Assembly (NCBI GenBank): GCA_035776755.1
Contig: DASTWS010000030.1
Location: 172,150-236,149, forward strand
Direction of reading: 5' to 3'
DNA: 64,000 nucleotides
From: Verrucomicrobiia bacterium
GTDB lineage: Bacteria; Verrucomicrobiota; Verrucomicrobiia; Limisphaerales; UBA11358
Every line of letters starts with the position of its first letter. Position 1 is the stretch's first letter. Under the pieces are notes generated by a model. It saw only the letters and a list, made by a program, of their open reading frames with translations. It had not been told where the DNA came from and did not search any database. This document shows positions 1,763 through 49,468 of the stretch, piece by piece. Position numbers and translations under genes: made by a program.

Positions 1763-2741
1763 CTATATTTTTGCGCAAGGCAGCCTGACACCGCCGGGCG
1801 CGCCTGCGCCGACGATGAAGTCACTCGACCAAATTGAGCCGCGCATACCCGTTTCCGCAAGCACGACGCCGGGCAATGGGAACAATCTTTACATCATCAG
1901 CCAGCCCGGTTCGTATTATCTGACGACAAACATTGTCACGGTCACCAATTACGGCGCCACGGGGATAGAAATTCTCCCGAACAATGTGACGCTGGATTTG
2001 AACGGATTTTCTGTTATCTGCACATCCACCAATATCGGAACGTATGGGATATATATCCCTAACACCCAAACGAACATCACCGTGCGGAACGGCACGATCA
2101 ACGGCTGGTATTACGGGGTGTTTTCAATTAATGGCGATTCAGCCAACCTGGTTTTTGAAAGGTTGAACGCGGTGAATTGTGTCAAAGTGAATAACAGCAA
2201 CGGTTATGGGATGACTCTCAATGGCCCTGCGGTGCTCCGCGATTGCACCTTTGAAGGCAATGGCACTGGCGCCGCTTGTAACAATAATGTTTCGACTGGC
2301 AGCAGCGTGATAACCGGATGCACGGCCAGCCATAATTATTTTTCCGGAATCGTTTGTTCGGGCAGCGGAATCATCTCCGACTGCACGGCAAACAATAATT
2401 CCTCGGTCGGGATTGACGTTGCTTTTAATCAATTTGGCTCCAGTTCCACTGACGGCTGTCTTGTCTCCGGTTGCACGGTCAACAACAACTATTTTGGAAT
2501 ATACATCCAGGGGGCCAGAAACCGGATCGAAAACAATCACGCGGTGAACAACTCTTACGGGATTTATGTGTATGACGGCGGCGGTCCCTACACGAACAAC
2601 ATCATCGTCAAAAACAGCGTGGAGGGATCGGGCGTTGCCAACTACACCATCACCGGCGCGCAAATCGTCGGGCCGTTCATCACCAACACGATGTCGGGAA
2701 TTATCACCAATTTGAATCCGTGGGCAAATTTTTCATTTTAA
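1713..2741 (+). CDS. Secreted right-handed parallel beta-helix (PbH1) repeat protein, paralog 1
   Basis: Signal peptide MKINSVFVTVLSLLVSNYIFAQG. Conserved leader SLTPPGAPAPTMKSLDQIEPR. Repeated C-T-A-x-x-N...G-I units. C-terminus NPWANFSF. Confidence 0.8.
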   Translation: MKINSVFVTVLSLLVSNYIFAQGSLTPPGAPAPTMKSLDQIEPRIPVSASTTPGNGNNLYIISQPGSYYLTTNIVTVTNYGATGIEILPNNVTLDLNGFSVICTSTNIGTYGIYIPNTQTNITVRNGTINGWYYGVFSINGDSANLVFERLNAVNCVKVNNSNGYGMTLNGPAVLRDCTFEGNGTGAACNNNVSTGSSVITGCTASHNYFSGIVCSGSGIISDCTANNNSSVGIDVAFNQFGSSSTDGCLVSGCTVNNNYFGIYIQGARNRIENNHAVNNSYGIYVYDGGGPYTNNIIVKNSVEGSGVANYTITGAQIVGPFITNTMSGIITNLNPWANFSF

Positions 2742-2884
2742 TCTCTGGATTTTTAGCCCGCCTATTTCCGGGCAATTCGCGCGATTGCGAATAAAATCAT
2801 GGAAAACGCGCTTGACGGTTGATTTTTGCAGGATTAAAAAAGTTGAAGCGGTGGATGAGGCTGGCTCAAAACAAGTTGTGACCT

Positions 2885-4012
2885 ATGAACAAAAATTCTC
2901 TCCTCATTGCAGTCGTTTCGTTGTTTGCGTTTTCCGATATTCCCATCCTTGCCCAGGGCGCACTCACGCCGCCGGGCGCACCCGCGCCGACGATGAAATC
3001 GCTTTCGCAGATCGAACCGCGCACGCCGATTTCGTCCCTGCCCTTCATCATCACCAATTCGGGCTCGTTTTATTTGACGACGAATCTTTATCTTGGCACC
3101 GGCGAAAACGGAATCTCCATCAGTGCGAACGATGTGACGATAGATTTGAATGGATTCACATTGACGGGTTCGCCGGCGGCCGGCAGCGGCAGCGGTATTT
3201 ATGTGGATTATATTCACACGAATATCGTGGTGCGCAACGGCAACCTGGAAGACTGGGGTTTTCGCGGGCTGGAGGCGGAATACACTTACAACAGCCAGTT
3301 CGTTCAACTGCGTGCATCTGGAAACCAGGACGACGGCCTGGACACCGGCATTGATAGCACGGTGATCCAATGCACGGCAGCGAACAATGTTTGGGTGGGA
3401 ATCAATGCGTCGGCAGCATCGTCCGTCCGGAATTGCACGGCCACAGATAATGGCAACAACGGAATCAGCGTCAATGCCGGTTCGGTCGTCTTCGGTTGTG
3501 CCAGCACAGGAAATGGCGGCGGCATTTCCACCGGCACGGGTTGCACCGTCAGCGCGTGTTCCGCAAAACAGAATGGTGGCGACGGTTTTTCGATATCGCA
3601 AAGCACCATCGTAGATTGCACCGCCCAGGGAAATTCTTATCGCGGAATCGTGGCAAGCGATGGAAGCACGGTCAGTCGTTGCACGGCGCGGGTCAATACT
3701 ACGGACGGTATATTGGTAGGAACGGGTTGTCAGGTGAAGGACAACACCTGCCAGCTCAACGGCCACAACGGAACCGGCGCGGGAATCCACGTTTATGGAA
3801 ATGAAAGTCGCATCGAAGGAAATCATCTGGTCAGCAACGATTACGGCATCCTGGTCGACGCCACGAACAACGTCGTGATCAAAAACAGCGCGCAATTGAA
3901 TACCACCAATTACCTGTTCACGGTTCCCCAGGTTATGGGCCCGATCATTAAGACTGCTGACACTTTTGGATTTATCACCAATGAGAACCCGTGGATCAAT
4001 CTTTCCTTTTGA
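2885..4012 (+). CDS. Secreted parallel beta-helix repeat protein, paralog 2
   Basis: Signal peptide, leader ALTPPGAPAPTMKSLSQIEPRTPISSLP, PbH1-like repeats (CTAANN, CTATDN, CSAKQN, CTAQGN). C-terminus NPWINLSF. Confidence 0.8.
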   Translation: MNKNSLLIAVVSLFAFSDIPILAQGALTPPGAPAPTMKSLSQIEPRTPISSLPFIITNSGSFYLTTNLYLGTGENGISISANDVTIDLNGFTLTGSPAAGSGSGIYVDYIHTNIVVRNGNLEDWGFRGLEAEYTYNSQFVQLRASGNQDDGLDTGIDSTVIQCTAANNVWVGINASAASSVRNCTATDNGNNGISVNAGSVVFGCASTGNGGGISTGTGCTVSACSAKQNGGDGFSISQSTIVDCTAQGNSYRGIVASDGSTVSRCTARVNTTDGILVGTGCQVKDNTCQLNGHNGTGAGIHVYGNESRIEGNHLVSNDYGILVDATNNVVIKNSAQLNTTNYLFTVPQVMGPIIKTADTFGFITNENPWINLSF

Positions 4013-46464: not shown

Positions 46465-47448
46465 TTAGCCGCCCACTTCGGCGCGCGCTTCGGCGGCCAG
46501 CGGCGTGCTCAAATAACGCTCGCCAGTGGACGGCGCAATCGTGACGATGAGTTTGCCCTTGTTTTCAGGACGTTTCGCCACTTCAATCGCCGCGACGACA
46601 TTTGCGCCGGACGAAATGCCACACAAAATGCCTTCTTCTTTTGCGAGACGACGCGCCATTGTAAACGCGTCATCATTGGAAACTCCAATCGCTTCGGTGA
46701 TGAGCGGATTGCCGGCGGAATCTTTCAAGTGCAAATTTTTTGGAATAAATCCGGCGCCGAGCCCCTGGATTTTATGCGGCCCGGGCTTTAATGACTGCCC
46801 GGCAAGCGTTTGCGAAATCACGGCCGAATCCTTCGGGTCAACGGCAATAGCAACAAACGACGGCTTGCGCGGTTTGATGACTTCGACACAACCTGTAATC
46901 GTGCCGCCGGTGCCGACGCCGGCAACGACGATGTCCACGTTGCCGTCGGTATCGGCCCAAATTTCTTCGGCGGTCGTCCTTTTGTGGATTTCAACGTTGG
47001 CCTGATTTTCAAATTGTTGCGGCATCCAGGAGCCGGGCGTTTCTTTTAACAACGCTTCGGCTTTGGCAATCGCGCCTTTCATTCCTTCGGCGCCGGGCGT
47101 CAAAACCAATTTCGCGCCGAGCATCGCCAATAATGTGCGGCGTTCGAGCGACATCGTTTCGGGCATCGTCAAAACAACTTTATATCCTTTTGCGGCGGCG
47201 ACAAATGCCAGCGCAATTCCCGTGTTGCCGCTGGTCGGCTCGATGATGACGGAATCTTTTTTCAGAATGCCGCGGCGTTCGGCGTCTTCGATCATCGCCA
47301 TGCCGATGCGGTCTTTGACGCTGGAGAGCGGGTTGAAAAATTCACATTTCAGAAGAATGGTGGCGTGCAGGCCGGCGGTGACTTTGTTGAGTTTGACGAG
47401 CGGCGTGCGTCCGACGGTTTCGACGATGTTGTTATAGATGCGTCCCAT
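46465..47448 (-). CDS. cysK: Cysteine synthase A (O-acetylserine sulfhydrylase)
   Basis: PLP-lysine motif [11 protein letters not shown], and [11 protein letters not shown] at 47448 ([18 protein letters not shown]). Confidence 0.9.
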
Positions 47449-47599
47449 AAATATCTCTTTGGTTGTTTTTCTGTGGAGCAAGTTGCGCCGAATGAAATGA
47501 AGGAGCAAGAATTTTTTTAATCTTCCTCATCCTCTCCCTCTTCGTCTTCCGTTGATTTTCTAATTTTGATTCAAGAGAAAGAGCAAGAGGAAGACGAAG

Positions 47600-48480
47600 A
47601 TTTCTAAAAACATTAAGTCCCCGCCCAACCTTTCGGTTGAGCAGGGACAAATGGGGAATGGGAGTTCGTCACTCTCTCTTTCCCGAACCGGCATTAGACG
47701 CGCGCCTCTCGGCGGCTGCCGGATTCCCGACGCCATTCTCCACGGCAAGCGGAGTTTCGGCCTCGTGGCAGGGCCGTCCAGCGCCTTTCGGTCGCTGAAT
47801 TTCGAGTGAGGCTTTTCGGCTCGCTTCAACCGATGGTTGCGCCACCGGTCTGCAAACCAGGTCAAGACACGCCTGCGATTTCTTCTTTCGCGTCTTGGCC
47901 GCTTGGCTTCGGGTCAGCCGCTGATTTTGTCAGCGCGTTCGCCCACAGCCACGGGTCTCGCCTCTTCACTCATAGATTGCTTTTTGCCGCAGTCCAGCGG
48001 TGCCGTTTTTAACATCGCCGGCCTTTGGAAGGTTTTTCACGCGACTTGCCCGGTCATCGTGGCCTTCCCGTTGCAGTTTCTCTTTTTGTCCGCCTTTCGG
48101 CGTTTTTCGTTTGGCGAACTCAACGTTTTAATTTTGAATCCAGCCGAGATACCTGCACCGTGCTGATCCGCAGTAGCAACCGTTTGCCTGTTTTCGGCAA
48201 CTGCGATTCATCCAGGCTCGAAACCTGCCTGAACTACTTGACTCAATTCGGAACGGTTTCTAATCGCTCCTCATCGCGCGGCTCCGTCTTTCGCATTACT
48301 GACACGTGCGAGCGTGCCAGAGGAACCGGTGAATCTTGCCTCCGCCACCTGCCTTTCGGCCGGTTTTAGAGGAGCCGGATGAATCAGCCTCATCCAACTT
48401 TTCCCCAGTTACCTGGGATTATCCCGGAAACGTTCAGCTTCAATCTTTCGACCGCCACTGCCCGTTTCGTTCATTCATTG
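47600..48480 (-). ncRNA. Candidate large structured RNA, class unknown (boundaries approximate)
   Basis: No credible ORF on either strand. On the minus strand there are multiple GNRA-capped hairpins (47617-47648, 47703-47714, 47779-47797, 48091-48102, 48347-48364). Other helices lie at 47828-47840, 47919-47935, 48027-32/48064-69 and 48377-48395. Helix 47863-70/47890-97 needs a G.U pair that is legal only on the minus strand. Confidence 0.4.
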
Positions 48481-48544
48481 AACTGGAATCATCATAACAA
48501 TTTTTCCCGTTCCGACAATGAATTGATATGCACACGTTGTTCAC

Positions 48545-48575
48545 CAAAAAACCGCCGCAAACAAATTGCGGATAA
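48545..48575 (-). terminator. Orphan intrinsic-terminator-like hairpin (minus strand)
   Basis: Minus strand reads CCGCAA-tttgt-TTGCGG (48555-48571), then cgg, then TTTTTT (48546-48551). No gene lies upstream on that strand. Confidence 0.4.
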
Positions 48576-48721
48576 CGCAAAAACCATTGTCAAATCAATG
48601 CAAATCGCGTTTTTTGTTACAAACTATTCACAATAAATTTCAGCGAAAAACGGCGGTGGTGAACAAGTCTATGTGTAAAGTTTTGGAAAAATTTCGAAAT
48701 AAATTTTTTAGCGAAACAAAT

Positions 48722-48930
48722 TTGAAAAATCCCGAAGGGATTTAATCAATCAGCCCGGCGTTGGCCGATTGAAAAATCGGACTACGCCGGGCAATTGACA
48801 AAATGTTATTCAACCCTGACAGGGTTGAATCGTTTGCCGACGGATTCCCAGCGTAGCCGCTCCTCGCCTGTCCGGCTCGGACCGTCAACGCCGGGCTGGA
48901 TGATTTGAATCCCGTTGGGATTCACAAATT
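48722..48930. repeat. Symmetric palindromic element of about 200 nt (MITE-like or structured RNA)
   Basis: Imperfect terminal inverted repeats of about 40 nt, each containing an AATCCC-N3-GGGATT hairpin (48727-48743; 48908-48922). 13-bp perfect long-range complement CAGCCCGGCGTTG (48751-48763) / CAACGCCGGGCTG (48886-48898). Internal hairpins at 48754-48791 and 48807-48829. Confidence 0.5.
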
Positions 48931-49015
48931 GCGCTCGACAGGAAAATTTTTGAGAGCAGAATTTGTTCGGGTTTGATGAAAATATTTTTCTCTATCTGCG
49001 TTCTACTGCATTGCG

Positions 49016-49468
49016 TTGCTGCTTTGCCTTCCATCAGGACGTTTTAATGTTCATTGCGAACTGTTGAGCGGTGAAAGCGGAACGGCCAATGAAAAACTTT
49101 TAAGAGCCATCGGTGATATTTTTAAAGTGAATATCAAGATAGAAGATAAACACTTGTGGAATGGTTACCGGGTAACAGCTCCAAATCCATTACCAGAATG
49201 TTTCAAAATTTCAAAAGCTTCCGGCGGTGATGTGCAAATGCATGGAATTGGCGATTATGAAGGTTATCATTTGGATGATATACTATCTCATGCACTCTAT
49301 GATAAGCCTTTCGAGTTATCTTCCATAAATAATACGCAGCGATATGACTTGAAGTTGCAAGTTTGGCCTGAAGCCTATGGAGAAATGACGGCACTGCAAC
49401 AATTAGGTTTTGATATTGTTCGAGCCAAGATTCCAGAAAAGACTTTGGTGATTAATCCTCGCAAATAA
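49016..49468 (+). CDS. Hypothetical protein (AT-rich); start ambiguous, possibly frameshifted
   Basis: ORF has no in-frame ATG near its 5' end. An ATG at 48976 lies one base out of frame across an A4 run. Both frames encode a hydrophobic signal-like N-terminus. Confidence 0.45.
   Translation: MLLCLPSGRFNVHCELLSGESGTANEKLLRAIGDIFKVNIKIEDKHLWNGYRVTAPNPLPECFKISKASGGDVQMHGIGDYEGYHLDDILSHALYDKPFELSSINNTQRYDLKLQVWPEAYGEMTALQQLGFDIVRAKIPEKTLVINPRK

Follow-up and report, generated by a model that had tools for sequence, protein, structure and literature searches.

Large bacterial non-coding RNAs have repeatedly proved to be ribozymes, guide RNAs or, lately, RNA-only assemblies. MISL RNA is, to our knowledge, one of the few among them for which no function has been proposed. 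The family (Rfam RF03079) consists of structured non-coding RNAs of about 750 nt from Verrucomicrobia, filed in Rfam under the type 'Gene; sRNA', and it reportedly goes back to a survey by comparative genomics (Weinberg et al. 2017). A full-text literature search returned no functional or structural study on MISL. The name was met only in the Ribonanza chemical-mapping paper, in one figure legend and one extended-data legend, and the main text of the Weinberg et al. 2017 survey (PMC5737381) makes no mention of it. A literature text match to 'RF03079' was dismissed, the actual string being 'ORF03079'. Three other large RNAs, namely ROOL, GOLLD and OLE, form homo-oligomeric RNA complexes, as shown by cryo-EM (PMC12286853).

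Based on the covariance-model, comparative and contextual evidence presented here, a locus within the 64,000-nucleotide stretch of verrucomicrobial DNA that we analysed (hereafter the window) is very probably a MISL RNA gene of the Limisphaerales/Pedosphaera-type Verrucomicrobiota, specifying a single-copy, independently transcribed and compactly folded non-coding RNA. The structured RNA at this locus is real and its class, listed in Rfam, is already known; the finding is an instance of a catalogued family and should not be counted as a new class. The boundaries, promoter, leader, terminator, distribution and genomic context described below are small additions to the knowledge of an orphan family.

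Family identity and conserved structure

The whole window was scanned against Rfam 15 at gathering thresholds (Infernal, cmscan), and the region 47300-49100 was rescanned with permissive settings. RF03079 is the sole match at gathering thresholds in the 64-kb window, where it occurs only once. Its score of 559.6 bits is about twice the gathering score of 274.6 (E = 3.5e-169), and the alignment spans model positions 1-751 of 751, without truncation and with an average posterior of 0.95. Within 47661-48424 no second family reached E <= 1 when all 4227 Rfam models were run with permissive filters; at that level there was no match to RNase P, tmRNA, SRP, 6S, group I or group II introns, OLE, ROOL, GOLLD, HEARO or retron RNAs, and ARAGORN predicted neither a tRNA nor a tmRNA anywhere in the window. 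An earlier, sequence-only reading of this DNA had proposed a large structured RNA of unrecognised class and had seen by eye no motifs of RNase P, tmRNA, SRP or group II introns. The RNA itself is borne out, and the claim to novelty falls with the confident, full-length Rfam match, an outcome that the reading had itself named as decisive. Score, full model coverage, consensus helices, compensatory changes, Verrucomicrobiota lineage and size all place the locus within the family.

Mapped onto the window via the cmscan alignment, the Rfam consensus structure retains 166 of its 177 pairs, 157 of them canonical. Eight of the ten helices picked out from the sequence are found in the Rfam consensus (Table 1). 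A ninth (47617-47648) is the terminator, which lies outside the model, and the tenth, CAACC-auc-GGUUG (47828-47840), finds no support in the consensus, its bases forming part of a longer helix, GGUGG-CGCAA-CCAUC. A long-range helix (47971-47961 with 47811-47804, minus strand) closes a domain of three hairpins. The G.U pair noticed in the helix formed by CAAGACGC and GUGUCUUG, which would be a C.A mismatch on the plus strand, is G.U in 95 of 97 aligned sequences. Invariant unpaired stretches are numerous (for instance GGAUAAUCCC, GGUUGCUACUG, AAGAGGCGAGACCCGU, AGCCUCACUC, GGCGUCGGG and GGGAAAGAG). The assignment to the minus strand is upheld by the predicted folding energy of 47606-48484, with an MFE of -370.4 kcal/mol on the minus strand (z = -8.4) against -319.2 kcal/mol on the plus strand (z = -4.75).

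The sequence-only reading had called the locus rich in GNRA tetraloops, and this is correct: five GNRA hairpins with at least four contiguous pairs lie on the minus strand and two on the plus strand, and the whole unit, leader and terminator counted, holds six or seven such loops. In 2000 dinucleotide shuffles the mean was 0.97 +/- 1.0 hairpins, and a fraction of 0.0045 reached five, so that the statement that such an array is very unlikely by chance stands as far as shuffled sequence is concerned. However, such a count is not unique in the window, in which a coding region (about 2200-3700, minus strand) reaches six in 888 nt. The GNRA count by itself is weak evidence for the structure of MISL, and covariation was therefore used as the main evidence. 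The peak at about 2200-3700 consists of weak, A/U-rich or G.U-rich stems inside the plus-strand ORFs 1713-2741 and 2885-4012, had no Rfam match in the whole-window scan and is most likely due to chance.

Homologues were collected by scanning one genome per species with a pattern made of the invariant strands of the long-range helix (AGAGGCNAGACCCG, then 110-140 nt, then GCCTCACTC). This gave at least 119 loci, one per assembly among the matches listed. With the MISL sequence of the window as query, nhmmer found a single match in 118 of these loci, each either full-length (about 750-765 nt) or cut only by the end of the locus. Nearly all carriers among the matches listed are labelled as Verrucomicrobiota, Verrucomicrobiae, Limisphaerales, Pedosphaera, subdivision 3 or Opitutales, and one cultured Limisphaera isolate (L077) is among the matches listed. 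The CysK and Rho proteins of the window are up to 93-95% identical to MISL-adjacent CysK and Rho in Verrucomicrobiota-labelled metagenome-assembled genomes. Six assemblies labelled 'uncultured Bifidobacteriaceae' or 'Bifidobacterium' (L009, L032, L034, L035, L072 and L080) also carry MISL; the cysK of L009, L072 and L080 is 84-94% identical to that of the window, and rho comes next in L009 and L072. These six taxon labels look wrong.

An alignment of 97 units (the window and 96 loci, each with 62 nt per side) served for counting pairs in the Rfam structure, which the hairpins of the leader and the terminator bring to 200 pairs. Standard pairs are formed in 91.2% of the cells, as against 35-44% when the 3' partners are slid by 1-3 columns, and changes on both sides are seen in 136 of the 200 pairs, as against 81-93 in the slid controls. 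Cells with both-side changes number 1396, compared with 390 in shuffles, and none of 500 shuffles was as high as the observed pairing values. For the MISL core the comparison is fair because the structure comes from the Rfam model and not from the 97-unit alignment. The consensus secondary structure is thus kept by compensatory changes across about 100 species, and the search for homologues and covariation suggested by the sequence-only reading turned out in favour of a structured RNA. In 34 shared genomes, the RNA unit has a median nucleotide identity of 79.4% to that of the window, and the cysK coding sequence one of 77.5%. The constraint on MISL RNA is similar to that under which the gene of a housekeeping enzyme evolves.

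Limits of the unit and its expression signals

The conserved unit is longer than the Rfam model and measures about 880 nt, with a promoter, a leader of about 60 nt, the 764-nt core and a terminator (Table 1). We infer a discrete, stable minus-strand transcript running from about 48484 to about 47606; both ends are read from consensus motifs, the start from the spacing to the promoter. These limits agree very closely with those first proposed (47600-48480). The view that the core of this region is something other than a promoter is also correct.

The predicted MISL promoter is made up of a -35 element, TTGTCG (48518-48513), a 16-nt spacer and an extended -10 element, TGtTATGAT (hexamer 48496-48491). 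About 100 homologues share the same order of elements, that is the upstream box, a TTGTCG-like -35, a spacer of 16-17 nt, TGnTATGAT, CAGUUCAUUGAAAGAAC and a hairpin of variable sequence. The box GTGCATATCAATTC could be an UP-like element or the site of a regulator. An imperfect inverted partner of this box is present 60 nt farther upstream (48591-48602), and the two could represent two half-sites for a regulator.

Two hairpins occupy the leader. The first, GUUC-AAUGAAU-GAAC (48483-48469, minus strand), is nearly invariant, and CAGTTCATTGAAAGAAC is likewise near-invariant among the homologues. The second (48468-48427, minus strand) is built in three tiers under a GAAA cap; 85.6% of its cells are paired across the 97 units, and compensatory changes occur in all ten of its ten outer pairs, which shows selection at the level of the RNA. 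Transcription thus probably begins near 48484, some 60 nt ahead of the first position of the Rfam model.

At the other end, the C-rich tail is conserved in nearly all 3' flanks between the end of the Rfam model and the terminator. The latter combines a G+C-rich stem of 14 bp, capped by GAAA (47648-47617), with CUUAAUGUUUUU on its 3' side. Almost every homologue continues downstream in the same manner, with ACUCCCAUCCCCCAUUUG, a G+C-rich hairpin of about 14 bp that usually bears a GNRA loop, and a U-rich tail. Compensatory changes affect 10 of the 12 outer pairs, and 96.6% of the cells are paired (97 units). As the U-tract of the window is interrupted, some read-through from MISL into cysK may occur. 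Together with at least 119 species that carry the gene in single copy, the bounds given by promoter, leader and terminator should be an aid to experimental work on MISL.

The MISL pattern also matched four IMG/VR contigs (L120, L121, L122 and L123). L120 encodes proteins that match a levivirus maturation protein weakly and an RNA replicase beta chain strongly, and L122 encodes a picorna/dicistro-like capsid, a helicase and an RdRP; L121 and L123 share sequence and represent a third virus seen twice, one of the two having a weak RdRP match. The MISL pieces sit at the ends of these contigs with differing junctions, which identifies the contigs as chimeric assemblies from RNA-derived libraries. 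A phage-borne MISL was accordingly rejected, the four matches being chimeric RNA-virus contigs. As indirect evidence that carries no strand information, these contigs imply that MISL RNA was abundant in their source samples. The MISL piece of L120 (1-830) extends into the 5' leader, and in L121 and L122 the MISL sequence breaks off at the C-rich tail, short of the terminator stem. This stop could reflect 3' trimming, or merely stops of reverse transcription.

Table 1. Positions of the MISL core, its predicted flanking elements and its principal helices in the window
Feature	Position	Strand	Remarks
Conserved box GTGCATATCAATTC	48520..48533	(-)	adjoins the -35 element upstream; consensus ctGTGcATAtcAATTcgTtG (60 anchored upstream regions)
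Sigma-70-type MISL promoter (predicted)	48491..48518	(-)	scan, 9/12 matches; TG before -10
5' leader beyond the Rfam model	48425..48484	(-)	conserved and covarying hairpins
MISL RNA core (RF03079)	47661..48424	(-)	764 nt; about 19 hairpins; cmscan and covariation
C-rich single-stranded 3' tail	47649..47660	(-)	consensus CAUCCCCCAUUUG; window CAUUCCCCAUUU
Intrinsic terminator (predicted)	47606..47648	(-)	terminator scan; covariation
Hairpin GGAUGA...UCAUCC	48377-48395	(-)	in Rfam consensus
GAAA hairpin	48347-48364	(-)	in Rfam consensus
Hairpin CGCC-GAAA-GGCG	48091-48102	(-)	in Rfam consensus
Helix GGAAGG/CCUUCC	48027-32/48064-69	(-)	in Rfam consensus
Hairpin CGCUGA-CAAAA-UCAGCG	47919-47935	(-)	in Rfam consensus
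Helix CAAGACGC/GUGUCUUG	47863-70/47890-97	(-)	in Rfam consensus; contains a G.U pair
GAAA hairpin	47779-47797	(-)	in Rfam consensus
Hairpin CGCC-GAGA-GGCG	47703-47714	(-)	in Rfam consensus

Genomic neighbourhood and alternative explanations

On the minus strand of the window, MISL is followed by cysK (PALP domain), rho, the gene of a regulator with a WYL domain, and lpxD. The divergent neighbours upstream of MISL are a 150-aa ORF (no Pfam match) and genes for a CDP-alcohol phosphatidyltransferase, a SecDF-P1-head protein, an M23 peptidase and ClpB. In most relatives a SecDF-like gene is found about 250-500 nt upstream of MISL; in the window the 150-aa ORF and the CDP-alcohol phosphatidyltransferase gene separate the two. 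About as many of the loci keep the SecDF-like and M23 genes upstream as keep cysK. The segment 44067-46247 (minus strand) encodes a short Rho of 380 aa, with RNA-binding and ATPase domains, and then the WYL/WCX-domain regulator; this rho-WYL pair is conserved 3' of cysK in many related loci.

This arrangement invites the explanation that MISL is a giant cis-acting leader, akin to a riboswitch or an attenuator, which senses a signal and controls cysK-rho via the hairpin 47617-47648. In the window, MISL does lie 5' of cysK on the same strand (the start codon is about 210 nt from the end of the Rfam model and about 170 nt from the terminator stem), the terminator stands between the two, and the order MISL-cysK-rho recurs in many species: among the matches listed, a same-strand cysK comes after MISL in 49 loci and rho in 34. 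Moreover, a simple sigma-70 scan detects no promoter in the MISL-cysK spacer. However, among the matches listed, 92 loci have a downstream flank of 1300 nt or more, and cysK comes first in that flank in only 40 of them if genes are assigned by cluster, or in 29 if ORFs are called greedily. In several loci, 1-4.7 kb of other genes separate MISL from cysK, and in at least 13 a long convergent ORF comes next. The position upstream of cysK given by the sequence-only reading is thus true of the window without being a defining trait of MISL.

Two further observations count against a cysK leader. The spacer contains a conserved promoter of cysK itself, which the simple scan missed (about 47470-47518, minus strand: an A-tract, CTTGCyC, about 17 nt and an ACAATCT-like hexamer) and which is seen in most loci where cysK comes after MISL; cysK would therefore be independent of the MISL promoter. 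The MISL terminator, for its part, is kept even where no same-strand gene follows. In addition, we know of no precedent for a 750-nt aptamer. Control of cysK-rho by a MISL leader is consequently very unlikely, and MISL appears, from its sequence context, to be an independent gene. Its linkage to cysK looks like inherited gene order, as far as the compared loci indicate; the order and orientation MISL-cysK-rho, kept in about a third to half of the species, could nevertheless amount to more than inherited synteny.

The MISL terminator and the cysK promoter are separated by a long imperfect palindrome (47520-47601, minus strand) with a pyrimidine-rich 5' arm (AUCUUCGUCUUCCUCUUGCUC...) and a purine-rich 3' arm (...GAAGACGAAGAGGGAGAGGAUGAGGAAGAU). 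In many homologous loci, a long hairpin composed of CGTCCT/AGGACG or CGAACAT/CAACAT units is found at this position. The palindrome might act as an insulator or as a second terminator, or represent a small insertion element, and it explains the weak miRNA-like matches in Rfam on 47510-47614; the other weak matches within 47300-49100 are chance ones in the flanks. The rest of the ORF-free stretch (48550-48970) is A+T-rich and contains unrelated palindromes at 48753-48792, 48808-48830 and 48924-48966. Two terminator-like sites, at 48830-48808 and 48571-48555 (minus strand), are not preceded by any gene on that strand.

Still less credible than a leader is the idea that the region codes for a protein, has become a pseudogene or is left over from a mobile element or intron. 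Several ORFs of 40-114 codons do overlap MISL, but of the 96 homologues only 3, 13 and 4 preserve the overlapping ORFs of the window in frame, and the substitutions track base-pairing rather than codon positions. Within 47661-48424, no group I or group II intron, retron or HEARO match was found in Rfam at E <= 1, and MISL is single-copy at syntenic chromosomal positions, so that we consider this explanation highly improbable. The least probable of all, to the point of being negligible, is a cluster of REP-like palindromes sharing the CCTTTCGG core, that is a genome-structural or mobile repeat: the five C(C/T)TTTCGG cores counted within 900 nt by the sequence-only reading, which had raised this alternative, are reproduced, but the stems that flank them differ and are unrelated in sequence, the core being simply a GAAA tetraloop with its closing pairs; only three further cores occur on the plus strand of the other 63 kb of the window, and the 880-nt unit is collinear, present in one copy per genome in at least 119 genomes and covarying in its pairs, also in the 96 other species aligned.

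MISL among large bacterial RNAs

A stand-alone gene in single copy, of constant length, with about 19 hairpins, GNRA loops and a long-range helix, suggests a folded RNA that would act in trans, presumably of the housekeeping type. The invariant unpaired stretches and the six or seven GNRA tetraloops point in turn to a defined three-dimensional body, which might serve as a scaffold for proteins, act as a ribozyme or assemble with itself into a particle. We would go further only speculatively, and with more doubt than confidence: MISL could be a lineage-wide housekeeping RNA of Limisphaerales-type Verrucomicrobiota that is catalytic or, like ROOL, GOLLD and OLE, homo-oligomeric, with the unit of about 880 nt, leader included, as the functional form. 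If this were true, the leader or the removal of the terminator hairpin would matter for the maturation of MISL.

Compared with the Rfam model, the conserved unit described here adds a leader of about 60 nt, a C-rich tail and an intrinsic terminator. In the window, MISL shares with the riboswitches and leader RNAs of sulfur metabolism its same-strand position 5' of cysK and the terminator hairpin downstream of it. Unlike these sulfur-gene leaders, it is about ten times larger and has no consistent linkage to cysK, whose promoter is separate. No alternative anti-terminator pairing is evident at the MISL terminator, which is constitutive in shape. As far as its sequence can show, MISL would not work in the manner of a sulfur-gene riboswitch or leader. 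ROOL, GOLLD and OLE are, like MISL, RNAs of several hundred nucleotides with an elaborate structure and numerous conserved positions outside helices, and they too were found by comparative genomics at a time when their biochemical function was unknown. These RNAs nevertheless belong to a different lineage, and the Rfam search revealed no match in sequence or structure between them and MISL; in further contrast to them, MISL is a chromosomal gene, present in single copy within a syntenic housekeeping neighbourhood.
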